Origin: Candidatus Zhuqueibacterota bacterium 4484_87
GTDB taxonomy: Bacteria; Zhuqueibacterota; Zhuqueibacteria; Thermofontimicrobiales; Thermofontimicrobiaceae
Direction of reading: 5' to 3'
Assembly: GCA_002085355.1 (NCBI GenBank)
Contig: NATN01000012.1
Span: forward strand, 1-34,033
Length of the DNA: 34,033 nt
In this document: in pieces, positions 1 through 21,803 of the stretch
Layout of the letters: every line of letters starts with the position of its first letter
Numbering within the stretch: position 1 is the first letter of the stretch
Notes under the pieces: model-generated
What the model saw: only the letters and a program-made list of their open reading frames with translations
Told to the model about the DNA's origin: nothing
Databases searched by the model: none
Made by a program: the position numbers and the translations under genes

Positions 1-918
1 CGATTCCGTGTGTCTATTTTGCCAATTGTTACTTCCCAATACAATCGAAAATACGAAAGCGTCGTCATTCGCGTGCTCGATGACCGCAAAGTAATAAAAA
101 ATCTGGATGCCCTTGGATTTGATGAAATAGCCAAACGCGAGTTTGTTAGCGCGATAAAAAAACCACAGGGAATGGTAATCCTGACAGGGCCTACAGGAAG
201 CGGTAAGAGCACAACTTTAGTAGCTGCTCTGAACTATGTGATGAATCCCGAGCTCAATGTACTGACGGTTGAGGACCCGGTGGAATACAACATTCGAGGC
301 GCGAGGCAGTTGAAGATCAGCCACAAAATGGACTTTGATCAGGCAATTCGGGCAATTTTGCGGCATGACCCGGACATCGTCATGGTGGGTGAGATCCGTG
401 ATGCGAAAACGGCTGAGATTGGTATCAAATTGGCAAACACGGGTCATTTAACCTTCAGCACCTTGCATACGAACGATTCAGCCAGCGTTGTTTCACGACT
501 ATACAAAATGGGAATCGAACCCTTTTTGATCGCCTATGCCATCAATTTGGTTGTGGCGCAGCGCCTTGTACGGAAATTGTGTCCGCACTGTCGTAAGCCA
601 ATCAGTGAAAGCGAAAAAGAGAATGCGTTACAGTTAGGAATCACAGAAGAGGAATTGGAGAAAGCAACAATTTATGAGCCTGTTGGTTGTGACAAATGCA
701 ATAGAGGCTACAAAGGAAGAATGGGAATTTACGAAGCGCTCCCATTTACACATGAGATCAGAAAAATTATTTTAAAGGCATCACAAGAATTAGATGAAGA
801 TGCCGTCAGAGAAGCAGCCCAAAGGCATGGGATGCTTACACTAAGGCAGTCAGCAATTCGGCTGGCATTACAAGGAGTAACCAGTCTGGAAGAAGTAGCT
901 GCCGTAACTTCAGAATAA
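1..918 (+). CDS. pilB: Type IV pilus assembly ATPase, PilB/GspE family (5' part lies upstream of the window)
   Basis: Frame is open from base 1 (RFRVSILP...). Walker A GPTGSGKST, Asp box TVEDPVEY, Walker B LRHDPDIVMVGEIRD, His box TGHLTFSTLHTND, and Zn tetracysteine CPHC...CDKC, which marks extension ATPases. Confidence 0.93.
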   Translation, partial: RFRVSILPIVTSQYNRKYESVVIRVLDDRKVIKNLDALGFDEIAKREFVSAIKKPQGMVILTGPTGSGKSTTLVAALNYVMNPELNVLTVEDPVEYNIRGARQLKISHKMDFDQAIRAILRHDPDIVMVGEIRDAKTAEIGIKLANTGHLTFSTLHTNDSASVVSRLYKMGIEPFLIAYAINLVVAQRLVRKLCPHCRKPISESEKENALQLGITEEELEKATIYEPVGCDKCNRGYKGRMGIYEALPFTHEIRKIILKASQELDEDAVREAAQRHGMLTLRQSAIRLALQGVTSLEEVAAVTSE

Positions 919-1337: not shown

Positions 1338-1384
1338 AACACGAAAGGAATCTTTATCATCAACAACTGTGAGGAGGATGCGTA

Positions 1385-1741: not shown

Positions 1742-1799
1742 AAAACAGTAAATAATAGGTGACAGTAAAGCCAGACAATTAAATCGCGGAGTAAAAAAA

Positions 1800-2240: not shown

Positions 2241-3212
2241 ATGCAAAAATTAAATTCGATTTCAAAAGGAGTTACCAAACTGTCAATGAATATCCACGAT
2301 TATGAACAGATATCATTTCGGCAGGCTCTGAAGTGGTGGAATCTTGTACGCTGGTTATCCACCATCAGTTTTCTCGCGTTGGGAATCATCCAAATAAGCG
2401 CCAGTGGCTTTACTTTTCCTATTCCCGCTTTTGTCTTGACATTGTTGGCAATCACTCTCTTGAACACTGTTTACAGTCTCTGGATCGATCATTTTCATTA
2501 CAACATCATTTTTCCCATTATTCATAATTTGCTGGATATCATCATTTTTTCGATGGCTATTTTTATGACCGGTGGGATTAAAAGTCCCTTTTTGTGGGGC
2601 TATCTTATCCCGATTCTTACGTCAAGTATCACCATAGGCAGGACGATGGGATTTTTTGCTTCATCATTGAGCATTCTCAGTCTGTGGGCTATCTCGCAGC
2701 TTTCGCAGTCTCCCATTATGATAAATTTGAAAGCGAATTATGACGTCTTCAATTACAATCAATTTGAAATAAAAACTCTTCTCTCCTACGCTTGTTTGTT
2801 CTTTCTGGTCTATTTTATTTCGTCTTTTTTGGCAAATTCATTGCGCGAGCAAAATTCAAATCTAAAAGCGCTGAATGAACAATTAATAGACAAAACGAAT
2901 CAGATTTTGAAATCTCAGGAAAAAATATTGGAGATGGAACGTCGCGACACACTTTACCAGGCGGCAATGACAATGCAGCATGAAATCAATAATCCTCTGA
3001 CTATTGTATCGCTGAACACCGAAATGTTGGTTAAGGAAACTCCTTACGTCAACCCAAAACGGATTAAGACCATTAATGATTCAATTGAGAGAATCAAAAA
3101 CATTTTAAATAAAATGCGCTCACTACAGGCAAAATCTCTGAAAAAACGGGATGCGCTGAGTGGGCTGGAAATTTTTGAATTAAATGAAAACGAAAATCAG
3201 ATAATTTTGTGA
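2241..3212 (+). CDS. Polytopic membrane protein with PilS-like sensor region and HisKA (DHp) domain but no HATPase domain
   Basis: About 6 hydrophobic segments including PilS-like MTGGIKSPFLWGYLIPIL, a coiled coil, and H-box QHEINNPL (His247). The protein ends about 75 aa later with no N/G1/F/G2 boxes. The start could instead be the ATG at 2286. Confidence 0.8.
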   Translation: MQKLNSISKGVTKLSMNIHDYEQISFRQALKWWNLVRWLSTISFLALGIIQISASGFTFPIPAFVLTLLAITLLNTVYSLWIDHFHYNIIFPIIHNLLDIIIFSMAIFMTGGIKSPFLWGYLIPILTSSITIGRTMGFFASSLSILSLWAISQLSQSPIMINLKANYDVFNYNQFEIKTLLSYACLFFLVYFISSFLANSLREQNSNLKALNEQLIDKTNQILKSQEKILEMERRDTLYQAAMTMQHEINNPLTIVSLNTEMLVKETPYVNPKRIKTINDSIERIKNILNKMRSLQAKSLKKRDALSGLEIFELNENENQIIL

Positions 3213-3213
3213 A

Positions 3214-4431
3214 ATGGAAAATTTGAATAAAATATTTGATAAAATCTTGGAAAATGTCCCGGATTATGCAACAGATATTGAGCGACAGGTATTGATTCGT
3301 CGAGGCATCAAATCTTTGACTCCGAACGAATTGAATGTGATCATTTCACAAATTAATAACTATTTGATCTTTATGCGCGAATCAGAAGCGTCAGACATTG
3401 AAATCGGTGGCTCTACAGCACTCGGACGGATCTGGTTTCGCGTGTACGGAGAGAAAAAGCCTTATCCTGAATTAGGGCTCTTTACGCAGGATCAGACAAA
3501 TATTTTTTGCCAGGCGATTTTAAGCGATAAACAATGGGAGCGCCTTTTGGATTGGCGTGCAACTGATTTCTCCCATCTCATTGAAAAAGACGGCACACTC
3601 TACCGTTGGCGCGCCACCGTTTATTTTGACATGGGACATTTAGCGCTCAACATGCGCGCTATTTCAGATAAAATTTATCCTTTCGCAAGCTATCAATTTG
3701 CCCCCGGCGTAGCAAAGCATTTATCGCTGGGGCATGAAAAACAGGGTCTGGTGCTCATCACAGGCATCACTGGCAGCGGGAAAAGCACAACCATGGACAG
3801 TATCATTGACGCTAACAATCGCAGCTTTTCCGGTCATATTGTCATCATTGGGGATCCAATAGAGCAGATCCACCAGTCAAAAAAGTGCATCGTCCGGCAC
3901 CGCGAAGTAGGTAGAGATGTACTTTCTTTCAAAGATGGAGCTGTTCAGGCGCTGCGCCAGGACCCGGACATAATCGTTGTCGGCGAAATGAGAGATTCGG
4001 AAACGATTATGACTTGTCTTGAAATTACAGACACAGGGCATAAAGTATTTTCAACATTGCACACAAGTTCTGCGGTGGAAACGATCGACAGAATCATTGC
4101 CGAATGCCCTCCTATCGAACAGGAGCGGGTGCGCAACCGATTGGCTGATGTGCTGAAAGTTATTATTTCGCAAAAATTGGTTCCAACAATCGATGGAAAA
4201 TTAATACTTGCTAAAGAAATAATGGTCGTTGACAGCGCTGTGAAAGCAGCAATTCGTAACAATAATACCCATGAAATTTACCAGATGATCAGCGAACGCG
4301 GTCATTTGGGAATGACCACGCTTGAACAAGATTTAGTTCGACTATACAGAAACAGGCAAATTTCAAAAGAAAATGTGTATAACTTTGCAAATAACAAAAA
4401 ACGAGCGCATGAATTAATGACTTCTGAATAA
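3214..4431 (+). CDS. pilT: PilT/PilU-family pilus retraction ATPase
   Basis: Walker A GITGSGKST, GDPIE, ALRQDPDIIVVGEMRD, TGHKVFSTLHT, AIRNLIRE-like AVKAAIRNN, GMTTLEQDL. No tetracysteine motif. Confidence 0.9.
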   Translation: MENLNKIFDKILENVPDYATDIERQVLIRRGIKSLTPNELNVIISQINNYLIFMRESEASDIEIGGSTALGRIWFRVYGEKKPYPELGLFTQDQTNIFCQAILSDKQWERLLDWRATDFSHLIEKDGTLYRWRATVYFDMGHLALNMRAISDKIYPFASYQFAPGVAKHLSLGHEKQGLVLITGITGSGKSTTMDSIIDANNRSFSGHIVIIGDPIEQIHQSKKCIVRHREVGRDVLSFKDGAVQALRQDPDIIVVGEMRDSETIMTCLEITDTGHKVFSTLHTSSAVETIDRIIAECPPIEQERVRNRLADVLKVIISQKLVPTIDGKLILAKEIMVVDSAVKAAIRNNNTHEIYQMISERGHLGMTTLEQDLVRLYRNRQISKENVYNFANNKKRAHELMTSE

Positions 4432-7032: not shown

Positions 7033-8670
7033 ATGACAACTATGAGAAAGATGATAATGACAACAGGCGTGGCGATGTGTATTTTTCTCACTGCCGCACT
7101 TTTTGCTCAAAATGAACTACCGCGAGAATACACGCCGCCCGAAGAGTTAATTTCACTCAACAGTGAAATTGACATTGCAACAGCTCTGGATTTATTGAGC
7201 GAATATGCAATCCAATTCGCCAGGAAACCCATTTACGATCCGGAAAAGCATACCGGCCCCATCGGCGTGGACATTCGCAGCATTGCGTGGAAAAAAGCGC
7301 TCGGATTAATTCTCAGCAGGCGCGGACTCTGGTACGTTGAAAAACCGCGTTACATTGAAATCGTCAATGCCGACGAGTATGAATCCAGACTCACGGGTGG
7401 AGACAATTTAAAGCTCGGTGCTGGAGAAGACCTCAAGCCAAATAGCCGGGAAGTAAAGATTGAGACTGTGTTTTTTGAAGGCGACAGAAAAGCATTGAAA
7501 GAAATCGGATTGGATTGGAGTACATTTTATCAAGGAAAAGTTTTCATCGATGCAAATCAGTTGGGTTCGCTGGACATCACTGACAACATGTTTAGCGTTG
7601 GTGCGCGAATCCCGAAAAATGTTGTTGGAGTAGATTTAGAGCTATTGTTAAAAGCATTTGATTCAAAAAAAATCGGCAAAGTGCTGGCGCAGCCGCAGGT
7701 CGTCGTCACTGAAGGAAAAGAAGGCGTCATTCAAGTCGGTCAAGATTTTTCGATAAAAGAACGGGATTTTGCCGGAAATGTCATCGATCGATTTTACAGC
7801 ACTGGTACGATTCTCAGAGTGATGCCCTATGTCATTCAAAAATCAGGCCCGGATGGTAAACCCCTTGAGCCAGTCATTTTTCTGAAAATTCACGTTGAGC
7901 GCAGCACTGCCCACCCGGATGTCGTAAGCACAATTATCAACAAATCCCAGGCAAATTCATATTTACAACTTTACGATGGCGAAGAAACCCTGATTGCTGG
8001 CCTGTACTCCACCGAAAAAAATAGTGTGCGCAAAGGAGTGCCGATTTTGAAGGATATGCCCTGGTGGTTCTTTGGTTTTCCCTACATTTTTGGTTACAAC
8101 CGCACAGAAGAAAACGAGAAAGAATTGGTTATTATCATCAAAGCAAGCCTGTTGAAAGATGTACTAACGAGGCAAAAAGTAACTAAAACGAATGCACTCA
8201 ATTTAAGTCATACAGTAGCACAAAATTACCAAAGCGACTCATTTATCAGAAATGACTTTTCTCAAGTTAATGTCTATCAAAACACTCCGGTGCAGGATTT
8301 TAAGGTTACCACAAATCCGGAGGCAGCGATGATCTCGCAACCCTCATCAATGCCGATACAATCAACAGCGCCGATAGTACAAAATTATAGTCCGCTTCCA
8401 AAATATTGTTTGGGAAAGGTAGTCAAAATAAAGGACCAATTTGCCCTAATCAATTGGCAAAGCAAACCGGAAGTTTTAAATATCGACGGAAGAACAGCAT
8501 CTGTTGTGAGAAAATCAAACAGCAATCGAAAAGTAACAATTATTGGAATAGCCAAAATTCTCGGTACAAGGCAGAATCGATCTGTCGCTAAAATTGCTAA
8601 AAAGAGGCTCAATTCACAAATTCGTGCCGGGGATTTCATTGTTGTCAAACTTAATGCAACTGAGGATTAA
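7033..8670 (+). CDS. pilQ: Outer-membrane secretin (PilQ/GspD family) with C-terminal extension
   Basis: Signal peptide (..ALFA|QN), REVKIETVFFE, KVLAQPQVVVTEGKEGVIQVGQ, GTILRVMP, DGEETLIAGL, GVPILKDMP, KELVIIIKA. Confidence 0.88.
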   Translation: MTTMRKMIMTTGVAMCIFLTAALFAQNELPREYTPPEELISLNSEIDIATALDLLSEYAIQFARKPIYDPEKHTGPIGVDIRSIAWKKALGLILSRRGLWYVEKPRYIEIVNADEYESRLTGGDNLKLGAGEDLKPNSREVKIETVFFEGDRKALKEIGLDWSTFYQGKVFIDANQLGSLDITDNMFSVGARIPKNVVGVDLELLLKAFDSKKIGKVLAQPQVVVTEGKEGVIQVGQDFSIKERDFAGNVIDRFYSTGTILRVMPYVIQKSGPDGKPLEPVIFLKIHVERSTAHPDVVSTIINKSQANSYLQLYDGEETLIAGLYSTEKNSVRKGVPILKDMPWWFFGFPYIFGYNRTEENEKELVIIIKASLLKDVLTRQKVTKTNALNLSHTVAQNYQSDSFIRNDFSQVNVYQNTPVQDFKVTTNPEAAMISQPSSMPIQSTAPIVQNYSPLPKYCLGKVVKIKDQFALINWQSKPEVLNIDGRTASVVRKSNSNRKVTIIGIAKILGTRQNRSVAKIAKKRLNSQIRAGDFIVVKLNATED

Positions 8671-8673
8671 AAA

Positions 8674-11600
8674 ATGTGTCGATACATTATAAAGTTCGGG
8701 GCTATCGTAGTTATTAGCATTGTTCTTTTTCTGTCATGCGGAGACAATGATAATGTAGTGGGCTCAAAGACAGATTCCATTGAGACTTTGACGACATCGG
8801 AACCGGCGATTTTGGCTGATGGACTTTCGTCAGCAATCATCGTGGCGACTGTGCTTGATTCCAGCGGGAAGCATGCCGGAGGTCTGCCTGTTCATTTTGA
8901 AACGACTTTCGGTACAATCAATGAAACCGTGTACACAGATCAGGATGGCAATGCTTATGCATTGCTGCAGAGCGTTGCCAGCGCAACAGATATCAAAGCG
9001 ACAGTTACGGCAACTGTTCTGGATACGCTGTTCACCATTCCCAAAACTCGTGCGCATTTCGGAGTTAATCTGTCTGTGAAAGGTATGAAGTCGTTGCCCG
9101 GCAGAAAATTCGATTTAAAAAAATCTTCGGCAGCAGGAGAAAATTCAGCATCCATCGATGTTACTTTTCTGGGCATTACTTTCAGCGGCGAATTACAGGA
9201 AATCGCAATTCCGGCAGACGGCATCTCAAAAAGCCGCTTGAAAGTCAACATCAAAGAAACTACAAGCAAGAAGGCAATTACAGAAGCGCAAATTTCTCTT
9301 GCTGCGTGCTATGGCACGATTGTCAATAAAATCGTAACTGACAATCAGGGATTAGCACAAACCGACATTACGGCAGCGACAACCGAAGTGACGGACTCTA
9401 TTTTCATGGAATACGGGAATGTCTTCCGCGATACGTTGTTCATCAGCTACGAGAAGCCCAATATTTCTATTTCACCGAAAACAGTTTACTTGATTGCTGA
9501 CGGATCGAGCAAAACGACCTTTACTGTCTCGCTGAAATCGAAAGAGAATACCCCCATCGTGAACGCAGAAGTCCGTTTTTCAGCGACAAACGGCACCATC
9601 GCGCCCAGTTCAGTTTTCACGAACAGCGAGGGAATCGCTCAGGCAACACTCACAAGCGTGGCAAAAGTGGACACAAATGTGCTCGTCATCGCGCGTTTGA
9701 ATAGTTTTGCAGATACATCTCATGCCAATTTTATCAAGCCGATTCTAAGCCTTACTCCGGAAACTGGAGAATTACCGGCGGATGGCAACAGTGAAATGGA
9801 TTTTACTGCCTCCCTCCTGCTGCCGGATCACACTCCTGTCGTCGGCGCAGTAATTAATTTTTCAACATCAGCAGGCTCGATTACTCCGGCTTCCGGTGAG
9901 ACAGATGCCACCGGCTCTGTGAGCGCAACGTTGAAGAGCAGTTTTGATGAAAAAGAAAATGTCATCGTCAAAGCGGCATTTCAAGAGCTGGAAGAGACAG
10001 CAACCGTCAAGTTCTCTCTCCCAGTTCTGACAATTTCTCCGACTGAAGCCAAATTGCTGGCGAATGGCAGCAGCAAACAAACTTTTACAGCAGCGTTGAT
10101 TTCCCGCAATAATGTTCCTATTGAAAATGCAGAAATTGTGTTTTCAACAACGAACGGGACAATATCCAATTCAACAGCAATAACAAACGCCGAGGGAAAA
10201 GCGACGACAGATTTGCGGAGCAGTACCATTGCTGATTCAAATGTGAAAGTAATTGCTCAGTTTCATCATGCCGCAGACACTGCAGCCGTCGTTTTCATCC
10301 CGTCTTCCACCGAAAGCGGATTGATGCTGGACGGTGAAAAAGAACTGTTCCGTGATGGAATTTCATCCACTTCGATTACAGCCACCGTGTTGGACGACAA
10401 TGGAAATCCTGTCTCTGACGCGACAGTCTTTTTTACTGCGCAATATGGCACAATTCCGCAAACTGCAATCACGGGCACAGATGGCAAAGCGACAGTGACT
10501 TACACTGCTGATGTGGGAGAGAATAGTATTTCTGACGAAATCACAGCAACCGTCGGTACAGCGTCAGTAAGCCATGCAATAAATTTAATAGGGCTGACAA
10601 TGACCCTCACTGCTTCGCCTGACTCAATTCCCGCAGATGGGACGTCAAAGTCGGTAATTTCTGTACATTTAAAACAGACTGAATCTCAACTGGCAGTCCC
10701 TGGAATAAGTATTACTTTTACCAGCAATTTGGGATTCATAGGTACAACGGCTACGACGGACAATGAAGGGGTGGCAATTATTGAATTACGCGCTGCTTCA
10801 ACGCCCGGAAAAGCTACCGTGACAGCGACTTACGGACAATTTGTCAAAACAGTGGACGTTCAATTTTATTTGAACTCGCCGCAAAGTATGGTTTTGACTG
10901 CTGATCCGAATTACATCTGGGTAAAGGAGACTGGCAATCTCGAGCAAACAGTGATTACTGCCACAGTGTTGGGGGTTCAGGGACACCCCATTGGACATTC
11001 AGTTCCGATTAAATTTTATGTTCAGAATTCTCCTGATGAGAGCTTACCCGCAGACCAGCAATGCGGTTTTGTTGATGAAGCTGGTACTGTCGTGAGAGAA
11101 ACGGCTTCCATCTATACATCTGACGGATCAGCGAGCATCGGCTTCCGTTCCGGGACAAAATCCGGGACGGTAGAAATTCGTGCCGAATTAGTGGATCAAC
11201 CGCAAACATTATCTCGTCAGGCTGTGATTGTTATCCGTTCCGGTCCGCCCTACATCTGGATCGATCCGGCTGACCCCAATCATGTCTTACCGAACATGAC
11301 GCTTTATCTGGATTATTTCAACCAGGACGGCAAACACGCGCTGCGTGAATACAATGTCACAGCGCTTTTAGGTGATAAATACAACAATCCTGTTGAACAA
11401 AACACGACGGTTTATTTCACTACCACGGGTGGCGTCATCACAACCGATACAAAGACGGACGCACAGGGTTTCGCGCATGTATCTCTTTTCTCAGGAAACC
11501 CATTTCCGACAACATGTCCGTCCGATACGCGACTGGATCCGCATCAGATCCCTAATCCGAATGCAGACGGCTTATTCTTGCCCATTACGTTGACTGATTT

Positions 11601-12084
11601 TGAAGGAGGCGAGGTGGTCAATAGCTGCGGGGATACCGGCGAAAATGATGGCATCGCTGTCATTTATGCCTATACATGGGGCAGAGATCAAAACGGAAAT
11701 GATGCAACAGTATTTTCTACAGCAAAGGCGATATTTGGCGGCGCTATTGCCCACTTTGAGGTATTCGTCGATCCACCGGTGGATTCTCTGAATCCGGGCG
11801 AAGTTGCCAATATTCACATTCGCGTCTGGGACGAGCACGGCAATCCACCATCAGCAGGATCTTCATTAACAGCATCCACCTCTGCGGGGAAATTATCAGT
11901 TGAAAAATTTATGCCGGATAAAGATCGCTATGGATATGGCAGCACTTATTTTACAACATCTCTGCTCAATAATTTGGACCCTGTGGAAGACGAGGCGCAA
12001 ATGGCAGAGGTTACTATTGAACTGGATGCGCCCAATCCAAACGGGAAAGTAAGCGGAACTGTTTACGTATATCTAAAATTATAG
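8674..12084 (+). CDS. Large lipoprotein with about 10 invasin/intimin-type Ig-like (Big_1) repeats; putative adhesin
   Basis: Lipobox VLFLS|C. Repeated (I/L)PADG.S...(I/F)TA.(V/L).D..G.PV....V.F.T..G.I......TD..G.A...L motifs. S/T/A/V-rich composition. Confidence 0.82.
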   Translation: MCRYIIKFGAIVVISIVLFLSCGDNDNVVGSKTDSIETLTTSEPAILADGLSSAIIVATVLDSSGKHAGGLPVHFETTFGTINETVYTDQDGNAYALLQSVASATDIKATVTATVLDTLFTIPKTRAHFGVNLSVKGMKSLPGRKFDLKKSSAAGENSASIDVTFLGITFSGELQEIAIPADGISKSRLKVNIKETTSKKAITEAQISLAACYGTIVNKIVTDNQGLAQTDITAATTEVTDSIFMEYGNVFRDTLFISYEKPNISISPKTVYLIADGSSKTTFTVSLKSKENTPIVNAEVRFSATNGTIAPSSVFTNSEGIAQATLTSVAKVDTNVLVIARLNSFADTSHANFIKPILSLTPETGELPADGNSEMDFTASLLLPDHTPVVGAVINFSTSAGSITPASGETDATGSVSATLKSSFDEKENVIVKAAFQELEETATVKFSLPVLTISPTEAKLLANGSSKQTFTAALISRNNVPIENAEIVFSTTNGTISNSTAITNAEGKATTDLRSSTIADSNVKVIAQFHHAADTAAVVFIPSSTESGLMLDGEKELFRDGISSTSITATVLDDNGNPVSDATVFFTAQYGTIPQTAITGTDGKATVTYTADVGENSISDEITATVGTASVSHAINLIGLTMTLTASPDSIPADGTSKSVISVHLKQTESQLAVPGISITFTSNLGFIGTTATTDNEGVAIIELRAASTPGKATVTATYGQFVKTVDVQFYLNSPQSMVLTADPNYIWVKETGNLEQTVITATVLGVQGHPIGHSVPIKFYVQNSPDESLPADQQCGFVDEAGTVVRETASIYTSDGSASIGFRSGTKSGTVEIRAELVDQPQTLSRQAVIVIRSGPPYIWIDPADPNHVLPNMTLYLDYFNQDGKHALREYNVTALLGDKYNNPVEQNTTVYFTTTGGVITTDTKTDAQGFAHVSLFSGNPFPTTCPSDTRLDPHQIPNPNADGLFLPITLTDFEGGEVVNSCGDTGENDGIAVIYAYTWGRDQNGNDATVFSTAKAIFGGAIAHFEVFVDPPVDSLNPGEVANIHIRVWDEHGNPPSAGSSLTASTSAGKLSVEKFMPDKDRYGYGSTYFTTSLLNNLDPVEDEAQMAEVTIELDAPNPNGKVSGTVYVYLKL

Positions 12085-12198: not shown

Positions 12199-12687
12199 AT
12201 GATGCAGAATGTTTTACTGATTGGCGCATTTGTGATTTTGGGGATATTGATTTTATCAATTAACAGCACAATTTTCGTCACCAACAAAGCGATTAGAGAG
12301 AACGAAGTTCATATTACAGGAATCGGTTTGGGGCAAGCGCTAATAGAAGAAATCACTTCGCGGTCTTTTGATGAAAATACGACCGGGTCAAAAAGGGTGC
12401 TCTCCCCTTATCAATTGACGAGCGTGGATAATCTGGGCAAAGAAACGGGAGAGCCACCATTTGATGATGTGGATGATTACAATAATTACAGTAAAAAAGT
12501 CGATACGCCGCGAATCGAGGGATACATGATTAATGTAAAAGTTGGCTATGCGAATCCGTTGATCCAGAGGAATTTTATTAATACGAAAACATATCTCAAA
12601 AGAATTGAAGTAACGGTAAAAAACCCGAAATACATGCATAACCCAGATTCGCTGACATTAGCGACTGTAGTTTCTTATTTCAAATGA
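12199..12687 (+). CDS. Minor pilin-like protein (PilV/MshD-like), cassette A
   Basis: N-terminal hydrophobic helix, LIEEITSRSFDE, LGKETGE..FDDVDDY (MshD-like), KRIEVTV. Paralog of 14239-14742. Confidence 0.62.
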   Translation: MMQNVLLIGAFVILGILILSINSTIFVTNKAIRENEVHITGIGLGQALIEEITSRSFDENTTGSKRVLSPYQLTSVDNLGKETGEPPFDDVDDYNNYSKKVDTPRIEGYMINVKVGYANPLIQRNFINTKTYLKRIEVTVKNPKYMHNPDSLTLATVVSYFK

Positions 12688-12699
12688 AACAGGAAAACG

Positions 12700-13281
12700 A
12701 TGCAAACGACTTTCAACATAATAATTTCAATTATCATTTTTTCACTTTTAATGATGATAGTCGTAAGCGTCGATGGCAACGTGAAATCAATTTCCAGGCA
12801 GCTATCAGGAGACAAAATCGCCCAGGAAATGGTCGTTGTAATTGTTGAGTTAATCGACCATGATTTTGCAAAAATTGGTTACATGAAAACCGCCCCTAAA
12901 TTTAAATTAGGTGCGTTGGATTCAAATAGAATCACTTTTTATTGCGATTACGACAATAATGGGCTCATGGATTCTGTTTCATATTACTTTGACTGGGAAG
13001 CAAGTGCCGTGAAATCCAACCCACATATTCACCAACTGTATCGCAAGATGAATAATCAAAACCCTGAAAAGGTTGCTTTGGGAATTGTTCATTTCAATCT
13101 CGCTTATTTCGATGAAAATATGAACTCTATCAGCTACGGCAAATTGGCAGATGTGAATTATGTGAATCAAATTAGGGCGATTCGAGTCCGTTTGCGTGTA
13201 GAAACTCAATTTCAAATTGAAAATCATTTCGGAAGCGCTTATTGGGAAAAAGTCTATTTTCCTAAAAATTTAAATTTATAG
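12700..13281 (+). CDS. Minor pilin-like protein (PilW/GspJ-like), cassette A
   Basis: N-terminal hydrophobic helix, IDHDFAKIGY, DYDNNG, FNLAYFD, IRAIRVRL, PKNL. Paralog of 14763-15347. Confidence 0.62.
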   Translation: MQTTFNIIISIIIFSLLMMIVVSVDGNVKSISRQLSGDKIAQEMVVVIVELIDHDFAKIGYMKTAPKFKLGALDSNRITFYCDYDNNGLMDSVSYYFDWEASAVKSNPHIHQLYRKMNNQNPEKVALGIVHFNLAYFDENMNSISYGKLADVNYVNQIRAIRVRLRVETQFQIENHFGSAYWEKVYFPKNLNL

Positions 13282-13290
13282 AACTATAAA

Positions 13291-14139
13291 TTGCGCGGTA
13301 CTTTTGTCGAGGAAGATCAATATATGGATTGTGGAATCGATACGGTTGCCATTTCATCGGATTCTGCTAATCCAACAATCGGAGATACAATATCAGTGAC
13401 GGTAAAAGCCTGGTACAATGACAAAAGGAAAGAAGCTTCAGCAAAAGTCGTATTGTCACGATTGACAATACCGCCGCTGAAAGCAGCCGTTGCCTTCCCG
13501 GGTCAAAATCCGGTACTTGATCTCAACGGCGCGCCGCTTATTGATGGCAATAACCACGACTATAACGGAAATTTGTCATCTGTTTCCAACGATCTGCCAG
13601 GCGTCGCAGTTCACTCAACAACAGACAGCGTCAACATTGTGCAAAAACTTTACAATGACAAACAAGAAGATCACGTCATTGGATTTGGCGGAATACCAAG
13701 TGTGCAAGTCAGCACAGTAGATGATCCGTCCATTTTTATTGATCCCATTACTGCCAGCGCTGACTTTCATTTGGCAGCGGGAACCTATAGTTCAGTGATC
13801 TTTGGTTCCAAAGATGCGCCGGTTATCGTTTACGGCCAAGGTGATTTGAAATTTTCCGGTGGCGTTGTCGGTCACGGAATTTTAGTAATTGACGGTACCT
13901 TGACGCTGTCAGGTAATTTTTTCTGGTATGGCATTGTTTACGTCGTCGGACCTTCTCCGGAGATTTTTAACTCGGTTGGCACAAATAGGATTATCGGCGG
14001 TGTGGTACTCGGCGGCAAAGATAAGACCGCTCGTTTACGAGGTACAGCAGATATTAAGTACAGCTACGAAGCAGTCGAAAATGTGCGAAACAAGACAAAA
14101 AGTCTCCTGACAATGAGTTTGATTTCATGGTTCGAATAA
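13291..14139 (+). CDS. PilX-like protein, cassette A, apparently lacking its N-terminal pilin-like helix (5'-truncated)
   Basis: Third slot of the cassette. Gly-rich beta repeats (GHGILVIDGTLTLSGNFFWYGIVYVVG) and C-terminal ISWFE, matching ISWWE in 15369-16634. Weak TTG start, no RBS and no TM segment. Confidence 0.55.
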   Translation: MRGTFVEEDQYMDCGIDTVAISSDSANPTIGDTISVTVKAWYNDKRKEASAKVVLSRLTIPPLKAAVAFPGQNPVLDLNGAPLIDGNNHDYNGNLSSVSNDLPGVAVHSTTDSVNIVQKLYNDKQEDHVIGFGGIPSVQVSTVDDPSIFIDPITASADFHLAAGTYSSVIFGSKDAPVIVYGQGDLKFSGGVVGHGILVIDGTLTLSGNFFWYGIVYVVGPSPEIFNSVGTNRIIGGVVLGGKDKTARLRGTADIKYSYEAVENVRNKTKSLLTMSLISWFE

Positions 14140-14238
14140 TTTCTATCGATTAATTGTCACAGGAAGTATTTAATCGGTCAATGATCTTGCGCGACAATGA
14201 TCGGTTCGTAATTAGTTATTTAAAATTGGGTTGAGAAA

Positions 14239-14742
14239 ATGGGAAAAGGTGATCTCATATTAGTTATCGGCGGACTGTTGCTCCTGTCGATGTTCACGCT
14301 CTCGATTAATAGCTCCATTACAGAGAATAGAAAGACGCTTTACTCGAGCGAAAGTGTGCTGAATGCGTTGGCTCTTGCTGAAAAATACATTGAGGAAGCC
14401 GAAGCGCTTCGATTCGACGAAAAAAAATCAGCCACTATTCCCAGTTCATTCACGAATCCCAGCCGTCTCGGTCCGGATGATAATGAATATTATCCTAATT
14501 TCGATGACATCGACGATTTTAACTATTTCACTTATACCGATACTTCTTCAGGCAATGTACCGTACACGATTCAGATCAGGGTTTTTTATACGACACTTTC
14601 AAATCCTGATCAGATTTCTACCAGCAGAACTTACTTTAAAAGAATGGTCGTAAATATCTCATCACCATTTATGAAAAAGATCAACGATAAAACGATCACG
14701 TTGAAAAAACTCTTTGCTTATCATTATTTTTATAGTGAATAA
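14239..14742 (+). CDS. Minor pilin-like protein (PilV/MshD-like), cassette B
   Basis: N-terminal hydrophobic helix, YIEEAEALRFDE, LGPD..E...FDDIDDF, KRMVVNI. Confidence 0.62.
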   Translation: MGKGDLILVIGGLLLLSMFTLSINSSITENRKTLYSSESVLNALALAEKYIEEAEALRFDEKKSATIPSSFTNPSRLGPDDNEYYPNFDDIDDFNYFTYTDTSSGNVPYTIQIRVFYTTLSNPDQISTSRTYFKRMVVNISSPFMKKINDKTITLKKLFAYHYFYSE

Positions 14743-14762
14743 CAAAAAAATACGGTCAGAAA

Positions 14763-15347
14763 ATGAATGCAATAAGGGAATCAATACTGGCGCTGTTTCT
14801 TGCGGGCTGGATCATCATGATCGCTCTTCGTGTTAATACTAATACGACGCTTCACCTATATCACACGCAACAGAATGTGCTCAATCAAGAGAGTATGCAC
14901 CTACTGACTGATATTATCGAATATGATTTCCGTAAAATCGGTCATGGGTTATTAAATCCTCTCGGCGCCATTCAAGTCGCTGACAGCAATCGCATTGTAT
15001 TTTCCTATGATAAAGATCCGTCATTAGCGTATGATTCAATTAAAGTTGTTTATAAAATGGCCCCCATTGTACGTCGCAGTCACGTGTTCAACAAAATGCT
15101 CATCCGCAAAGAAAACTCAACAAAAATCACCCGTTTTCCGTTTGGCATTTCAAGATTTCATTTGAAATATTATAATAAACTGGGACAATTGTTGCCCACT
15201 CCGGTAGTATCTGATTCACTGGCAAGCATCCGAGAAATCGAAGTTTCCATCACGTTGGAAAGCAATAACCTTTCAGAAAAAGGATACGACCGGGCAAGAT
15301 ATGTGAGCCGCTTTGTACCCAAGAATCTTTTGAGTCATTACGAATAA
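14763..15347 (+). CDS. Minor pilin-like protein (PilW/GspJ-like), cassette B
   Basis: N-terminal hydrophobic helix, IEYDFRKIGH, FHLKYYN, IREIEVSI, PKNL. Confidence 0.62.
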   Translation: MNAIRESILALFLAGWIIMIALRVNTNTTLHLYHTQQNVLNQESMHLLTDIIEYDFRKIGHGLLNPLGAIQVADSNRIVFSYDKDPSLAYDSIKVVYKMAPIVRRSHVFNKMLIRKENSTKITRFPFGISRFHLKYYNKLGQLLPTPVVSDSLASIREIEVSITLESNNLSEKGYDRARYVSRFVPKNLLSHYE

Positions 15348-15368
15348 AAAAAATATATAGGCGAAATT

Positions 15369-16634
15369 ATGGGACGCTACGTTGCATTCATCATCATGGG
15401 ATTTTTTATCAGCACTTCTACCCTGCGGATGCAGGCTAATCGCTACACGAGTGCCAGCGTGAACAATTTTTCAACGAAATATAAAAAACTTGTTTTAAGA
15501 AATATCGCCAACACTGGGGCTACTGTTGCGTTGAATGCATTGACTGTCAATATTAACACAACAGCAGGGGTTTCAAACAGGCCTCTTGACGGTGGCACCT
15601 ACTCCTATTTCATTGAAAGGCAGCAAGACGACCCCAATTTAGGACCTACAGAAATTCGCGTCACTTCAATCAGTCGTTTCCTCGGCATGACGGACACGAT
15701 TATCGTGTTGTTGACAAGACCCTCTTTTTCAAGATATGCATATTTCACAAACCATGAAGGAAATATCTGGTTTGCCACAGGCGATACAATCTATGGCCCT
15801 TGCCATACCAACACCTATTTTCAAATGATGGGGCAACCAGTTTTTTATGGCAAAGTAACAAGCTCCAGAGTATATAATTCTCATTCTCCTTACAGAAAAT
15901 ATTACCACGGATCAACAAATCCCCAATTCCTGGGCGGCACAGAGTGGGGAGTGCCCGAACTCCCGATGCCTGATCATATACCCCAGGATCTGATTGATGC
16001 CTCGCAGAACGGCGGAATTTATATCTCTAAAAGACATGTCTGGATCCAATTCCTCTCAAATGGGAGGGTAAAAATAGCTGCCAAAAATTCTCCGAGTCCT
16101 CCGCATTCATGGCAATATACGACTTACAATTTAAATTCCATCAATGGTGTCATCTATGTGAACAATTGGGGAGCCAGACCTGTCGTTCGCGTCAAAGGAA
16201 CAGTGAATGGAAACGTGACTGTCGGTACTCGAGGTTACATTCGAATCACTGACGACATTGTATATGCAGATGATCCGAGAACGAATCCAAGTTCAAATGA
16301 TATGTTGGGATTAGTTGCCGAGCGGGACGTTATCGTAGCGAATAACCATCATGATCAGGACAGGACGATCCAAGCGAGTATTATGACGCTGAATCCTTCT
16401 GTTGCTCCTAATAAAAACTTCTGGGTCGATCGTTACAAAAATGATCGTTACGGAAGGCTGCATCTGTTGGGTGGGTTAATTCAAAATTCCCGCGGCGCCG
16501 TCGGTTTGGTCGGTAGTTACTGGTCGCGAAAAGGCTACCTCAAAGATTATCATTGGGACTCTAGATTAATGAAAATGAATCCCCCTTATTTCCCGACTTT
16601 GTTCGCCTTGAAAAAAATCTCCTGGTGGGAGTAA
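15369..16634 (+). CDS. PilX-like protein with DUF4900-like C-terminal domain, cassette B
   Basis: N-terminal hydrophobic helix and LRNIANTGATVAL (PilX_N-like). FSRYAYFTNHE..IWF.TGD.I.GP.HTN, DMLGLVAE and C-terminal ISWWE. Confidence 0.62.
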   Translation: MGRYVAFIIMGFFISTSTLRMQANRYTSASVNNFSTKYKKLVLRNIANTGATVALNALTVNINTTAGVSNRPLDGGTYSYFIERQQDDPNLGPTEIRVTSISRFLGMTDTIIVLLTRPSFSRYAYFTNHEGNIWFATGDTIYGPCHTNTYFQMMGQPVFYGKVTSSRVYNSHSPYRKYYHGSTNPQFLGGTEWGVPELPMPDHIPQDLIDASQNGGIYISKRHVWIQFLSNGRVKIAAKNSPSPPHSWQYTTYNLNSINGVIYVNNWGARPVVRVKGTVNGNVTVGTRGYIRITDDIVYADDPRTNPSSNDMLGLVAERDVIVANNHHDQDRTIQASIMTLNPSVAPNKNFWVDRYKNDRYGRLHLLGGLIQNSRGAVGLVGSYWSRKGYLKDYHWDSRLMKMNPPYFPTLFALKKISWWE

Positions 16635-17020: not shown

Positions 17021-17077
17021 TAAATGAAAAGTGAACAAGTTACTTGTAAAACTCTCAAATATGAAAGGGGATGGGAA

Positions 17078-17704
17078 ATGCGTCAGGCAAAATTATTTTG
17101 GGGATGTGTGGTCATTTTTGAGATGTTGTTTCTCTTACTTGGCGGAACGCATCAAGCATGGACACAATCAGACTTTTCTGCAAAACCGCTGAACGTCATT
17201 TTTATTTCCAGCAAAATCGAAAATGCAGAAGCGATCAAAAATGCGGCGGATGAAGATGCCGTGACCGTAATCTACGATTTTGAAAATGCGACTTTACGGC
17301 AATTTAATTTGACGCTCCAGGAACTGGTGCAATGGAAAAAAAGGAAAATCGATCATCTGATGCTTTTTTGCCACGGTGCGCCGGGAACGATTATTTTAAC
17401 CGCGAAAGATATCATCAATGTAAAATCGCTGAAAAAACAAGCTGATGAATGGAAATTTTTCGGCAATATGTTCAACCGCGACGCCACCATTGACTTCTAC
17501 GGTAGCGAGATCGGCTGGGGGGAAGAAGGCAAGAAATTAGTGACTTCACTCTCGCAAATGACCGGTGCAAACGTTCGCGCGAGCATTAATCCGTCGGGCA
17601 ATATCCATGATGCTGACTGGAAATTGGAAATAAAGACCGGTGACAATAATTCCTCTTGCCCGATCAACTTTTCACAATTAGCTAAAACGCCCCTGTATTT
17701 TTAG
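17078..17704 (+). CDS. Stand-alone exported DUF4347-like protein
   Basis: IDHLMLFCHGAPG, DFYGSEIG...GKKLV..LSQMTGANVRAS...GN...DWKLE. N-terminal signal-like segment. The ATG at 17078 has a purine-rich RBS (the ORF track starts at 17024). Confidence 0.75.
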   Translation: MRQAKLFWGCVVIFEMLFLLLGGTHQAWTQSDFSAKPLNVIFISSKIENAEAIKNAADEDAVTVIYDFENATLRQFNLTLQELVQWKKRKIDHLMLFCHGAPGTIILTAKDIINVKSLKKQADEWKFFGNMFNRDATIDFYGSEIGWGEEGKKLVTSLSQMTGANVRASINPSGNIHDADWKLEIKTGDNNSSCPINFSQLAKTPLYF

Positions 17705-17780: not shown

Positions 17781-17826
17781 CATCTGATTGGTTAAAACAA
17801 AAAATACAGCAAATGAGAATGCAGCT

Positions 17827-19221
17827 ATGGAAAAGAACAATAACGATCCGAGGACAGTGCTTGTCGTTGATGACGACATAGTTGATCTGAAAATTATGGA
17901 GCGTTTTTTTTTAAACAAAAACTATCCACACTTGCTTGCCAAAAATGCTACTGATGGATTATCTCTGTTTCGCAAACATCATCCAAAAATCATTTTTATT
18001 GACCTGCTGCTGCCGGACATGAATGGCATTCAACTAATGGAACAAATTTTGGACGAAGATTCGGACGTTTCCATTGTCATCGCTACAGGTCATGCTTCTG
18101 TAGAAACCGCCGTAGAAGCGATCAAAAAAGGGGCGTGCGACTATATTACCAAGCCGATTGACATGACTCGACTGAATCTGCTCACAGAAAGGTTGATGAG
18201 ATCGCAGCAGGTTTTGATGGAAAAAATGCTTTTGCAGACCCGGCTCGATGAACTTTTCGGTTATCATAATTTTATTGGACAGAGTCCCGCGATAAAAAAT
18301 ATTATCAGAAAAATCGAACAAGCAGCACCCACGAGTTCCACCGTACTCATCACTGGCGAATCCGGAACAGGGAAAGAACTATGCGCCAATGCAATTCATC
18401 AGGCGAGTCCGAGAAAAAACAAGCCGTTTATCAAACTAAACTGCGCAGCCTTGCCTGAAAATATCATTGAAAGCGAGCTATTCGGTCACGAAAAAGGAGC
18501 GTTCACTACAGCCATTCAGAAAAGAATCGGCAAGTTTGAATTGGCAGATGGAGGCACCATTTTCTTAGATGAGATCGGCGAATTATCCCTGTCCATACAG
18601 GCAAAATTGTTGCGTGTACTGGAAAATCAGGAATTTGAAAGGATTGGTGGGAACGAGACAATCAGAGTTAACGTACGCCTACTCGCAGCGACCAACAGGA
18701 ACCTCAGTGAAGCTGTAGAAAACGGTCTTTTCCGCAAAGATCTGTTTTATCGGCTAAATGTCGTCAACATCCACATTCCGCCGTTAAGAGACAGGCGCGA
18801 AGATATTCCTTTGCTGTTGAGCCATTTTCTGAAACATTTCAGCGAGCAAATGAACAAGCCGATCAAATCCATTTCTCCTAAAGCACAGGCAATGCTTGCT
18901 TCTTATAGCTGGCCTGGAAATGTGCGGGAACTGGTAAACACCATCGAACGCGCTGTTGTGTTTTGTGAATCAAACACGCTTACGGAACAGGACTTGCCGG
19001 ACCAAATATCAGGGAAAAATTCACAGAGAGAGGATGGCACAGACATTCCCATTATGCCGTTAGCTCAGGTTGAAAAAAAATTGATAGAGAAAGTACTTCT
19101 GGAAACAAATTGGAATTTGCGTCGTGCTGCAAAAATTTTAGATATTCACCGAGGCACTCTGTACAGCAAAATTGAAAAACATGGCATTAACAAAAACAGC
19201 TTGCTGATGGTCATGAACTAA
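17827..19221 (+). CDS. Sigma54-dependent response regulator (NtrC/PilR family: REC-AAA+-Fis HTH)
   Basis: VLVVDDD, IDLLLP, GESGTGKE, ESELFGHEKGAFTTA, TIFLDEIG, RKDLFYRL, WPGNVREL and C-terminal HTH. ATG at 17827 preferred over TTG at 17788. Confidence 0.93.
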   Translation: MEKNNNDPRTVLVVDDDIVDLKIMERFFLNKNYPHLLAKNATDGLSLFRKHHPKIIFIDLLLPDMNGIQLMEQILDEDSDVSIVIATGHASVETAVEAIKKGACDYITKPIDMTRLNLLTERLMRSQQVLMEKMLLQTRLDELFGYHNFIGQSPAIKNIIRKIEQAAPTSSTVLITGESGTGKELCANAIHQASPRKNKPFIKLNCAALPENIIESELFGHEKGAFTTAIQKRIGKFELADGGTIFLDEIGELSLSIQAKLLRVLENQEFERIGGNETIRVNVRLLAATNRNLSEAVENGLFRKDLFYRLNVVNIHIPPLRDRREDIPLLLSHFLKHFSEQMNKPIKSISPKAQAMLASYSWPGNVRELVNTIERAVVFCESNTLTEQDLPDQISGKNSQREDGTDIPIMPLAQVEKKLIEKVLLETNWNLRRAAKILDIHRGTLYSKIEKHGINKNSLLMVMN

Positions 19222-20111: not shown

Positions 20112-21803
20112 ATGGCATTTCAAGAAGATCAGATTTTCATTCAGGAATTGATAAAAAAAGGTCTACTGACAAAATCTCAAATTATTCAGTCGCAAAACTC
20201 TTTGCGGGAACTGCTTCAACGCGAGGGAATTGCTAAAGCGTTAATCACCCATTTCAAACTCGATGAAACCAAATTAGCGCAATCCATCGCTGAAATTTTT
20301 AACGTTCCTTTTTTGGAACAGGTAAACGGCCTCTCTCGAATAGATATTGAGGAATTGCAAACAGTTAATACCCCGTCAGATTTTCGCTTCATTCCTGTAT
20401 TAGATGATATCAACGAAGTCACCATAGCCATCAAAGATCCGCCATATCAAAAATTAATTGAATTTCTCAAAAAGGCAACTGACAAACACATTATTCCCAT
20501 CATCTTAAAGGAATCGGACTACGAATATCTGAACAATGAAAAAGTCGTCGAGAAAAAAGTTGACAAGCCGTTGAAAATTGATTTTGACAAGCTTGACGTC
20601 GAGAAACAAGGAAAAAAATGGGCGCTGACCGCAGAACAAAGCGGATCGCTGCCGCCGCCGAACAGCGTGCTTGACAGATTGTTAGAAACCGCCAGTGAGG
20701 CCAATGCGAGCGATATTCATCTGGAAATCACTTCTTCAAAAACAATGAACGTGAGATTTCGCCTTAATGGTGTGCTCCAGCGCGTTGTTACGCTGCCGAA
20801 TGCGTATGCGTCTTCGCTGCCCAAAATTGTCAAGCAAAGAGCTTCCATTGACAATTTTGAGAAAAAAAATGCGGCAGAAGGAAGTTTCTTCATGCAATTC
20901 GGAGGTGTTAAGACAAACTATCGCGTCAATATTATTCCCACTGCTTTCAATGAAAAAATTACGCTGCGCGTAATGAACGATCATCTCGACATCATCCGGT
21001 TGGAGCGTCTGGGACTTTCGTTGCATGATTTACGACGAATCCGCCGACTGTTGTCCCAGCCCAATGCAGTAATTCTTTTTTCCGGGGCAAGCGGAAGTGG
21101 CAAGACAACCACGCTGTACTCCGTATTGAACGAATTGAATCATTTCACGAAAAACATTACCACTGTCGAAATGCCGGTGGAAGCCCATTTGGAAGGAATC
21201 AACCAAATTTCCATCGATCAAAACTCTGCATTAAATTTTGAGAAAGCGATCAAAGCGACTTTCCATCATGACGTGGATGTCCTCGCTCTGGGGGAAATTC
21301 GCTCGAAAGAAGATGCTGAACTGCTTTTAGAAGCGGGATTATCAGGATTGACCGCTTTTGCCACAATACAAGCCTCAAATGCAATAAAAACTCTTTATCG
21401 TCTGAAGCATTTTGGCGTGGACATTGAACAATTCGCTTTGACCTTGCGAGGCATCGTCTCGCAGCGTTTTGTGCGCAAGGTGTGTCACTACTGTGGGCAA
21501 GAATATATTCCTGATGAAGAAATTCTGGCAAAAGCAGGATTGGAGAATCTACCAAAAGATATCAAATTGAAACGTGGAATTGGTTGCAAAAATTGTCTGG
21601 GGACAGGTTATCTGGGCAGGATGCCCATTTTTGAAGTGCTCATTTTTAACGACACAATCAGTTCGCTGCTTGCCCAAAATAGACCCTATCGCGAAATCTT
21701 TGCAGCCGCACTGCATGAAGGTTTCACAACAATGCGTTACGACGGACTTCGCAAAGCGCTGGCAGGAATCACCACGCTCAACGAAGTCCTTCGCGTCACA
21801 TGA
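20112..21803 (+). CDS. Second GspE/PilB-family ATPase with degenerate catalytic motifs
   Basis: ASDIHLE, RFRLNGVLQ, Walker A GASGSGKTTT, CHYC...CKNC, GYLGR. The Asp box reads EMPVE, the Walker B region FHHDVDVLALGEIRS, and the His box SGLTAFATIQA. Confidence 0.85.
   Translation: MAFQEDQIFIQELIKKGLLTKSQIIQSQNSLRELLQREGIAKALITHFKLDETKLAQSIAEIFNVPFLEQVNGLSRIDIEELQTVNTPSDFRFIPVLDDINEVTIAIKDPPYQKLIEFLKKATDKHIIPIILKESDYEYLNNEKVVEKKVDKPLKIDFDKLDVEKQGKKWALTAEQSGSLPPPNSVLDRLLETASEANASDIHLEITSSKTMNVRFRLNGVLQRVVTLPNAYASSLPKIVKQRASIDNFEKKNAAEGSFFMQFGGVKTNYRVNIIPTAFNEKITLRVMNDHLDIIRLERLGLSLHDLRRIRRLLSQPNAVILFSGASGSGKTTTLYSVLNELNHFTKNITTVEMPVEAHLEGINQISIDQNSALNFEKAIKATFHHDVDVLALGEIRSKEDAELLLEAGLSGLTAFATIQASNAIKTLYRLKHFGVDIEQFALTLRGIVSQRFVRKVCHYCGQEYIPDEEILAKAGLENLPKDIKLKRGIGCKNCLGTGYLGRMPIFEVLIFNDTISSLLAQNRPYREIFAAALHEGFTTMRYDGLRKALAGITTLNEVLRVT

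Follow-up and report, generated by a model that had tools for sequence, protein, structure and literature searches.

The window analysed here, i.e. the whole 34,033-nucleotide stretch of contig NATN01000012.1, belongs to a metagenome-assembled genome (MAG) of 2.72 Mb that is divided among 274 contigs and is 73% complete. Between positions 12199 and 16634 it carries six closely packed, co-directional open reading frames (ORFs) inside a gene cluster resembling that of a type IV pilus; these are designated A, B and C, followed by A', B' and C' (Table 1). On predicted structure and gene order, the region consists of two tandem minor-pilin sets, each resembling the GspI, GspJ and GspK pseudopilins of type II secretion systems (T2SS). 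Five of the six ORFs (A, B, A', B' and C') start at the equivalent of residue +1 of a mature pilin, and since the start codon sits where that residue would be in a canonical pilin, the proteins appear to be made without a class III leader.

In all five of these ORFs, 2-6 residues precede a long hydrophobic helix. The N-termini quoted in an earlier, sequence-only reading of the window are exact (Table 1), and its statements that the helix begins close to Met and that the (K/R)G|FxxxE motif is missing from A, B, A', B' and C' were both borne out. None of the five has the short basic leader, ending in Gly-1 and cleaved by a peptidase, that defines a class III signal. When the frames were read from stop to stop, the first in-frame stop upstream of the ATG was 19 codons away in A, 4 in B, 5 in A', 8 in B' and 7 in C', and none of these intervals contained an ATG, GTG or TTG; the nearness of the stops and the lack of an alternative start codon rule out a longer leader, and hidden upstream starts, a possibility raised by the sequence-only reading, were rejected. 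When the window proteins were scanned against the Pfam and NCBIfam libraries, no family was found in A, B, C, A' or B' and only DUF4900 in C', and N_methyl (PF07963) did not match the five ORFs even at E <= 1. The expectation that such proteins would escape standard pilin finders therefore holds for the Pfam and NCBIfam models.

Structure models were generated with AlphaFold2 for A', using alignment A1 (20 kin homologues together with A), and for B', using alignment A2, and both were compared with known structures, for A' by an exhaustive VIA-align search of 48,161 chains. Each model shows the 'lollipop' arrangement of a long N-terminal helix packed on beta-sheet: that of A' (pLDDT 86.2) has a helix at residues 3-55 followed by a four-stranded sheet, and that of B' (pLDDT 84.2) has a helix at residues 2-57 and two sheets. 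The pilin fold on which the sequence-only reading depended is thus present in both models. The best four matches of A' were XcpV (Z 8.2, rmsd 2.8, 83/89 residues aligned), GspI (Z 7.7, 79/83), EpsI (Z 7.3, 82/84) and TTHA1218 (Z 7.2), with 79-83 of the 82-89 target residues covered in each chain, and, although best scores of Z 7-8 are common with this tool, the match is persuasive mainly because all four are I-type minor pilins aligned over nearly their whole length. For B', the best four were TTHA1219 (Z 13.5), EpsJ (Z 11.8), XcpW (Z 11.1) and GspJ (Z 11.0), the next row standing at Z 7.1, and ComZ was among the matches of both A' and B' (Z 4.8 and 3.3). B' has a predicted GspJ/PilW-type fold but showed no match to the T2SSJ sequence family in Pfam, NCBIfam or PDB sequences, and A' matched no T2SSI family in Pfam or NCBIfam; when C' and the B' alignment were used as queries against PDB sequences, only chance-level rows came back (E >= 0.21).

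The remaining members were assigned by their features and by paralogy. C' is large, lies third after the I- and J-like genes and lacks an acidic residue near position 5, with the T2SSK and PilX_N families unmatched in Pfam/NCBIfam; its DUF4900 match has an E value of 5.5e-9, and its nearest ESM-Atlas clusters also carry DUF4900. Some of these clusters have PilX_N in a minority of members (11-16%), no more than a lead. A is a paralogue of A' (phmmer E 5.2e-15, 30% identity, aligned in A1) and B of B' (25% identity, aligned in A2), so that the I-J-K gene order is present twice. The two tandem sets are accordingly proposed from the predicted folds of A' and B', the features of C' and the paralogy of A and B.

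Table 1. Genes of the pilus-like cluster in the window, with the class III-type protein encoded on contig C241 of the same genome
Feature	Position	Strand	Description
A, GspI/PilV-like minor pilin, set 1	12199..12687	+	162 aa; MMQNVLLIG, then hydrophobic helix
B, GspJ/PilW-like minor pilin, set 1	12700..13281	+	193 aa; MQTTFNIII
C, third member of set 1, PilX/GspK position	13291..14139	+	282 aa; TTG start; without hydrophobic N-terminus
A', GspI/PilV-like minor pilin, set 2	14239..14742	+	167 aa; MGKGDLILV; Met1-Gly-Lys-Gly-Asp5, then hydrophobic helix
B', GspJ/PilW-like minor pilin, set 2	14763..15347	+	194 aa; MNAIRESIL
C', large third subunit, PilX/GspK position	15369..16634	+	421 aa; MGRYVAFII; hydrophobic helix
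PilB-like assembly ATPase, C-terminal part	1..918	+	T2SSE E 2.6e-91
Three receiver genes, before the PilS-like kinase	936-2189		Response_reg in three ORFs
PilS-like sensor kinase	2241..3212	+	HisKA; 6TM_PilS E 8e-7
PilT-like retraction ATPase	3214..4431	+	TIGR01420 pilT_fam E 3.3e-94, bit score 315.9 (cut-off 319.1); T2SSE
Two ORFs between PilT and secretin	4448-6040, 6059-7030		530 and 323 aa; no Pfam/NCBIfam family
Secretin	7033..8670	+	PF00263 E 5.5e-24; TIGR02515 PilQ E 4e-19, under its cut-off
Repeat protein between secretin and minor pilins	8674-12084		1136 aa; seven Big_1/invasin-D3 repeats
DUF4347 protein, between the second minor-pilin set (directly 3' of it) and the sigma-54 activator	17024-17704		Signal-like N-terminus
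Sigma-54 activator with receiver domain (PilR-like)	17788..19221	+	Sigma54_activat E 2.4e-74; Response_reg; HTH_8
Receiver and zinc-ribbon protein genes	between sigma-54 activator and second PilB-type ATPase
Second PilB/GspE-like ATPase	20112..21803	+	TIGR02538 E 1.2e-99, under its cut-off; T2SSE E 5e-82
Class III-type protein, start	own contig C241:7482-7910		Found via weak N_methyl match

Conservation of the leaderless N-termini

Homologues of A' were found in 35 of the 61 related genomes used as the kin set for all family counts, and their N-termini were read at 20 loci. These share the consensus M-(G/H/A/N/R)-x-x-(E/D)-(L/M/I/T/V)-x-L, with Glu or Asp at position 5 from Met in 19/20 and the twentieth being one residue shorter, and at two of the loci (L018 and L019) a stop codon lies immediately 5' of the ATG. 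Position 4, by comparison, is occupied by G, S, R, Q or D. At a broader scale, the A1 profile was searched against 1.84 billion cluster representatives and recovered 1881 at E <= 0.001 (932 at E <= 1e-10), a GspI-like family of 1881 clusters at 50% identity. Among the best 150 of these 1881 representatives, 107 start in exact hmmsearch register, 12 have one or two extra residues, none has more, and 31 are shorter by 1-34 residues; the motif G[FMLIVY][ST]L[IVLM]E does not occur in any of the best 150.

In the 107 in-register representatives, the residue counts at position 5 are Q 60, E 42, H 3, D 1 and N 1 (E/Q/D in 103/107), with position 4 being Gly in 54, Arg in 19, Ser in 7 and Gln in 6, and position 2 being Gly in 43, Asn in 39, Ser in 8 and Gln in 6. 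The sequence-only reading had held that MGKG in A' could be a minimal leader; this candidate is ruled out by the variability of position 4 among the orthologues, Gly4 being conserved neither in the 20 kin homologues nor in the 107 representatives, and no conserved cleavable Gly leader was found in either set. The same reading had cited Glu5 as usual in type IV pilins, a point refined here: in the GspI-like family, Glu5 does not appear to be simply absent, Glu, Gln or Asp being kept at position 5 as counted from the initiator Met. In the same count, A' has Asp5, B' has Glu6, A has Gln3 and the major pilin described below has Gln5, with no such residue in B or C'.

The remaining orthologues have similarly short N-termini. 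B' orthologues of near kin begin MN-x-x-x-(E/D) and those of more distant kin M-(D/S/G)-S-x-L-x-L-I-G, all 18 matching frames of C' start M-G-(K/R) followed by a hydrophobic run, A orthologues begin M-x-Q-N-[FLI]-L-L-I-G, two of them having an in-frame stop 3 or 6 codons upstream, and B orthologues start MQTAF, MDTLL, MSTVL or MNHII. Recurrence in every orthologue that was read indicates that the short N-termini are not due to chance. In named public records, the in-register Met was present in 85/95 frames matching the A' family, with a stop immediately before it in 8/85. Val or Leu codons occupy the register position in another four frames and may represent GTG or TTG starts. The titles of the 78 named public loci are almost all of Ignavibacteria, Ignavibacteriales, Melioribacter, Bacteroidetes/Bacteroidota or related MAGs.

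Gene C, which was not among the ORFs listed in the sequence-only reading, lacks its first ~64-72 residues in this assembly. All four C orthologues that were read are 346-397 aa from stop to stop and start MGK(A/V)A(L/I) followed by a hydrophobic helix, with a stop one codon upstream of the start in two of the four. At the equivalent of 13290/13291, the near-complete congener G001 carries an additional 206 bases encoding the missing C N-terminus (MGKAALFIVIGL...), and in a contig from run X1 the two sides of the same junction are separated by 205 letters. On the basis of these extra bases, the truncated C ORF is probably an artefact or variant of this MAG, rather than a true loss. The run X1 contigs also span all five of the other starts without any base difference there, the single difference being T>C at 13914.

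The putative major pilin is encoded on another contig of the source genome, C193, the end of which (reverse strand) overlaps the first 255 bases of the window at 95.3% identity. C193 carries the only T2SSF (PilC) gene in the genome, three small genes of pilin-like type and the N-terminal portion of a PilB-type ATPase, and this content, together with the overlap, indicates that the pilus cluster runs on into C193; in G001 the entire cluster lies on one contig (C94) in unchanged order. The C193 major pilin is 137 aa long, with the N-terminus MGQQQLLLIVLSV and the start MGQQQLLL. Its homologues occur in 36/61 kin genomes, with counts by family near those of A' (6/6 for both in family f10, and 0 for both in families f4, f5, f8 and f11), and they share contigs with A' homologues at distances of 4-15 kb. 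Starts were read in 38 frames at 24 loci, of which 35 align from residue 1: MGQQQ in 28, VGQQQ in 3 (GTG at the same codon), MAQQQ in 2, MAQHQ in 1 and MGAQQ in 1. The distance to the upstream in-frame stop is 1-20 codons (median 5), and the first 27 residues are better conserved than the rest of the protein (mean share of the commonest residue 0.78 vs 0.51). NCBIfam gave no name for this protein and the ESM-Atlas only unnamed clusters, the nearest named ones (N_methyl, at 0.87 and 0.85) being a lead only. Among the 78 named public loci, only 16 have an MGQQQ-type frame within +/-6 kb of the A' homologue, and the Melioribacter roseus record has none. Taken from the reading frames, every subunit of the pilus machine is predicted to lack a leader, and the major one to have Gln at the Glu5 position. 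Among the three frames left out of the count of 35 is a second major-pilin copy (C193:2697-3074), which is 95% identical to the first from residue 12 but whose frame lacks the MGQQQ start; this looks like a frameshift near the 5' end or an assembly error.

Prepilin peptidase and a class III-type protein

The sequence-only reading had pointed to pilD as a relevant gene, and no match to the prepilin peptidase family PF01478 (Peptidase_A24) was found in the source genome at its 73% completeness. Within the kin set, PF01478 matched 38/61 genomes, although only 2/13 in the family to which the window belongs and 1/6 in family f10. Hand cross-tabulation showed that 13 of the 35 A'-bearing kin genomes have no PF01478 match (G000, G001, G003, G004, G008, G010, G013, G029, G030, G035, G053, G056 and G059); ten of the 13 are at least 90% complete, and N_methyl is also unmatched in 12 of the 13, the exception being G003. 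At relaxed thresholds, PF01478 at E <= 10 returned nothing in G000, G001 and G010, PF06750 at E <= 0.1 returned nothing in G001 and G010 and two sub-cut-off matches in G000 (E 0.08-0.10), and lenient searches with both models in G035 and G053 gave only sub-cut-off fragments, most with internal stops.

The 22 genomes that contain both A' and PF01478 do not link the two, which are never found within 40 kb on one contig and share a contig only in G012 (43 kb apart) and G039 (1.45 Mb apart). Of the 27 genomes with both PF01478 and N_methyl pilins, 20 have them within ~10 kb on the same contig (e.g. G040:C132, G057:C183, G028:C68 and G039:C1), and the peptidase beside canonical N_methyl pilins is a separate, ordinary system in most of the 22 genomes. 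Whether or not a genome has a PF01478 match, its A' homologues lack a leader.

Via a weak N_methyl match, a conserved protein of ~300 aa with a class III-type N-terminus was also identified, consisting of an 8-residue basic leader, Gly-1, Ser+1, Glu+5 and Pro+22. It is present in 52/61 kin genomes, as a single copy in nearly all, including near-complete genomes and, among others, G001, G007, G008, G009, G010 and G013, which have no detected PilD; its neighbours in G001 are a ComEA-like gene on one side and a PilM_2 gene on the other. Gly-1 was kept at 14/14 loci that were read and Glu+5 at 12/14. This hints that its leader is either never cut or is cut by a peptidase that the A24 models miss, and the presence of the protein in PilD-less genomes lowers confidence that peptidase activity is entirely absent. 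Whatever this protein shows, the window pilins offer nothing for an unrecognised peptidase to remove.

Two further observations concern the distribution of the peptidase family. Kin genome G015 (100% complete, 6% contamination) has six N_methyl matches and no Peptidase_A24 match, a second hint that a peptidase may escape the model, or was not assembled. In G021, G026, G031, G034 and G058, Peptidase_A24 is matched in frames of 165-209 aa without either N_methyl pilins or the leaderless family, and these are possibly Tad-type peptidases.

Candidate assembly mechanism and alternatives

The six pilin-like genes are probably leaderless minor pilins of a retractile, type IVa-like pilus that needs no peptidase step, a reading in line with both comparative genomics and structure prediction; the earlier proposal of pre-matured subunits that bypass prepilin peptidase gains support from the same two sources. 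The machine of this Ignavibacteria bacterium would comprise the three major-pilin genes and PilC on C193, a PilB spanning the junction between C193 and the window, and the PilT, secretin and second PilB encoded in the window. The hydrophobic alpha1-N helix of each subunit would insert in the inner membrane with 2-5 polar residues remaining cytoplasmic, each I-J-K trio could then prime a filament of the MGQQQ-type major pilin, and PilB and PilC would extrude this filament through the secretin. Glu, Gln or Asp at position 5, counted from a retained Met1, may stand in for the canonical Glu5, such that neither proteolytic maturation nor a prepilin peptidase step would be involved. The more general proposition, that Ignavibacteria and probably neighbouring lineages of the Bacteroidota group build retractile pili from subunits translated in mature form without a peptidase, is only somewhat favoured.

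Several observations weigh against assembly from leaderless subunits. An acidic residue near position 5 is missing from B, C' and the major pilin, and A has its Gln at position 3; the absence of a peptidase rests on hidden Markov model searches of MAGs, the source genome being 73% complete, and the conserved ~300-aa protein with its textbook class III signal persists in these genomes. With respect to fold, the VIA-align Z scores of 7-8 for A' fall in a range described by the tool as common for best hits, and a Foldseek search of the PDB with the A' model returned nothing at E <= 0.001, the best row being a Thermus competence pilin at E 0.066. Possible trimming sites are also present in the GspI-like family, with Gly at position 4 in 54/107 representatives and at position 2 in 43/107, and Gly or Ala is found at position 2 in 35/35 frames of the major pilin. 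These residues are central to the most serious rival, cryptic processing, in which the N-terminus would be trimmed either by methionine aminopeptidase, an enzyme that removes Met before small residues (Gly, Ala, Ser), or by an unrecognised prepilin-type peptidase cutting after Gly4 or Gly2, and some such peptidase may exist given that the class III-type protein persists in PilD-less genomes. Cryptic processing is nonetheless considered unlikely, as neither Gly is conserved at positions 2 or 4, the Glu/Gln register matches position 5 only if Met1 is kept, and no PF01478 match was found in the source genome or in the 13 A'-bearing kin genomes listed above, nor any PF06750 match above cut-off in the five kin genomes searched at lenient thresholds.

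A different explanation is that the pilin-fold proteins never join a filament and remain inner-membrane proteins, for example factors for assembly or alignment, for which a leader would be irrelevant. This would be compatible with the lack of an acidic residue near position 5 in B and C', with the presence of two ORFs without a Pfam/NCBIfam family (4448-6040 and 6059-7030) and with the fact that a filament has not been observed, but it is improbable given that the predicted folds specifically resemble tip pseudopilins of the I and J types, that the I-J-K order occurs twice, that the genes are linked to a 137-aa major pilin whose N-terminus is its most conserved part, and that PilT and a secretin are present. 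Ala-x-Ala-like strings after the major pilin helix (FSASAASAN) could potentially indicate Sec signal peptides cut by signal peptidase I, with soluble periplasmic products. However, the helix is at least 20 residues long and continues into alpha1-C (3-55 and 2-57 in the models), a basic n-region is mostly missing, A', B' and C' lack an AxA after the helix, and the N-terminus is the most conserved part, unlike in signal peptides; the Sec reading is therefore very improbable and was rejected on helix length and conservation. Mis-called starts or a wrong assembly, with the true genes having leaders, would find a precedent in the window's one assembly gap (13290/13291), to which C owes the loss of its N-terminus. 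This artefact was tested for the five ORFs and rejected as scarcely credible, since upstream in-frame stops occur both in the window and in dozens of independent genomes, the run X1 contigs agree at all five starts, and the same start is seen in 107/150 gene calls of representatives from unrelated projects.

Among known systems, the leaderless pilins are close in predicted fold and order to GspI-GspJ-GspK of the T2SS (XcpV/W/X and EpsI/J; PDB 3ci0, 5bw0, 2ret and 3nje), with Z 8.2-7.3 for A' and 11.8-11.0 for B', the same I-J-K gene order, and a large third member without an acidic residue near position 5, just as GspK lacks Glu5. They differ from these pseudopilins in having no class III leader, no N_methyl motif and no Pfam, NCBIfam or PDB sequence match, and in the lack of a prepilin peptidase match in the source genome, and the presence of PilT makes the machine look like a retractile pilus rather than a T2SS. 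The competence-pilus minor pilins of Thermus thermophilus (PDB 5g25, 5g23 and 6qvi) are similarly close, TTHA1219 being the best match of B' and TTHA1218 the fourth of A'; TTHA1218, TTHA1219 and ComZ are, however, described as made with prepilin leaders that are processed by PilD, whereas the window proteins have none. In overall composition the cluster resembles the type IVa pilus of Pseudomonas, Myxococcus or Neisseria, whose parts are PilA, FimU-PilVWXE, PilBCD, PilT and PilQ: it has PilB, PilC and PilT together with a secretin, a sigma-54 regulator pair like PilS/PilR, a set of minor pilins and a small major pilin, but it departs from that system in the lack of a PilD match and of any subunit leader, in Gln instead of Glu at position 5 of the major pilin, and in having PilM at another locus, beside the single protein with a canonical leader.

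Prepilin peptidase is counted among the five core components of type IV filaments by Denise et al. (2019, PMC6668835), according to whom MSH loci without a peptidase always occur in genomes that have another. The present cluster is like those MSH loci in lacking a peptidase gene in cis, but MSH pilins keep their leaders, and 12 kin genomes here have neither a peptidase match nor canonical pilins. The peptidase and the class III signal are likewise treated as core to type IV filaments by Berry & Pelicic (2015, PMC4471445). The window proteins fail on both the signal and the peptidase, and are therefore not classified here as ordinary type IV pilins. For Melioribacter roseus, of the same class, the published genome description (PMC3534657) lists pilT, pilQ, pilB and pilC as found and pilA and pilD as not found, the set being judged probably incomplete. 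The public record titled M. roseus has an A' homologue with an MNTGQ start and a stop 8 codons upstream. The present data suggest that the pilins are present but unrecognisable and that pilD is not needed. A literature search, with subscription journals mostly outside its reach, found no paper on leaderless type IV pilins or peptidase-independent pili.

If pili are indeed assembled from these leaderless subunits without a peptidase, they would be the first type IV filaments in nature to do without the enzyme regarded as core to the superfamily, and neither the leader nor its removal would be a mechanistic requirement for inserting subunits into the membrane or assembling the filament. Pili in Ignavibacteria-rich habitats (e.g. 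sediments, hot springs and bioreactors) would then be undercounted by system detectors and by pilin finders based on motifs, and the alternation of Glu and Gln at the Met-counted position 5 would constitute a natural experiment on the role of Glu5. The elements contributed here are a register in which position 5 is counted from Met1, the GTG starts, a genome-by-genome cross-tabulation of the peptidase, the doubled I-J-K sets and the class III-type counter-example.

Remainder of the gene cluster

The pilin-like ORFs are co-encoded with a PilB/GspE ATPase, a PilC/GspF platform and a secretin, and three T2SSE matches were obtained with Pfam in the window (Table 1). PilM is encoded at another locus, away from the pilus cluster. 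The two ORFs between PilT and the secretin, at 4448-6040 and 6059-7030, may be divergent parts of an alignment complex. The N-terminus of the Big_1 repeat protein ends in ...LFLSC, which may represent a lipoprotein signal, and the protein may be a pilus-associated adhesin or an outer-membrane partner.

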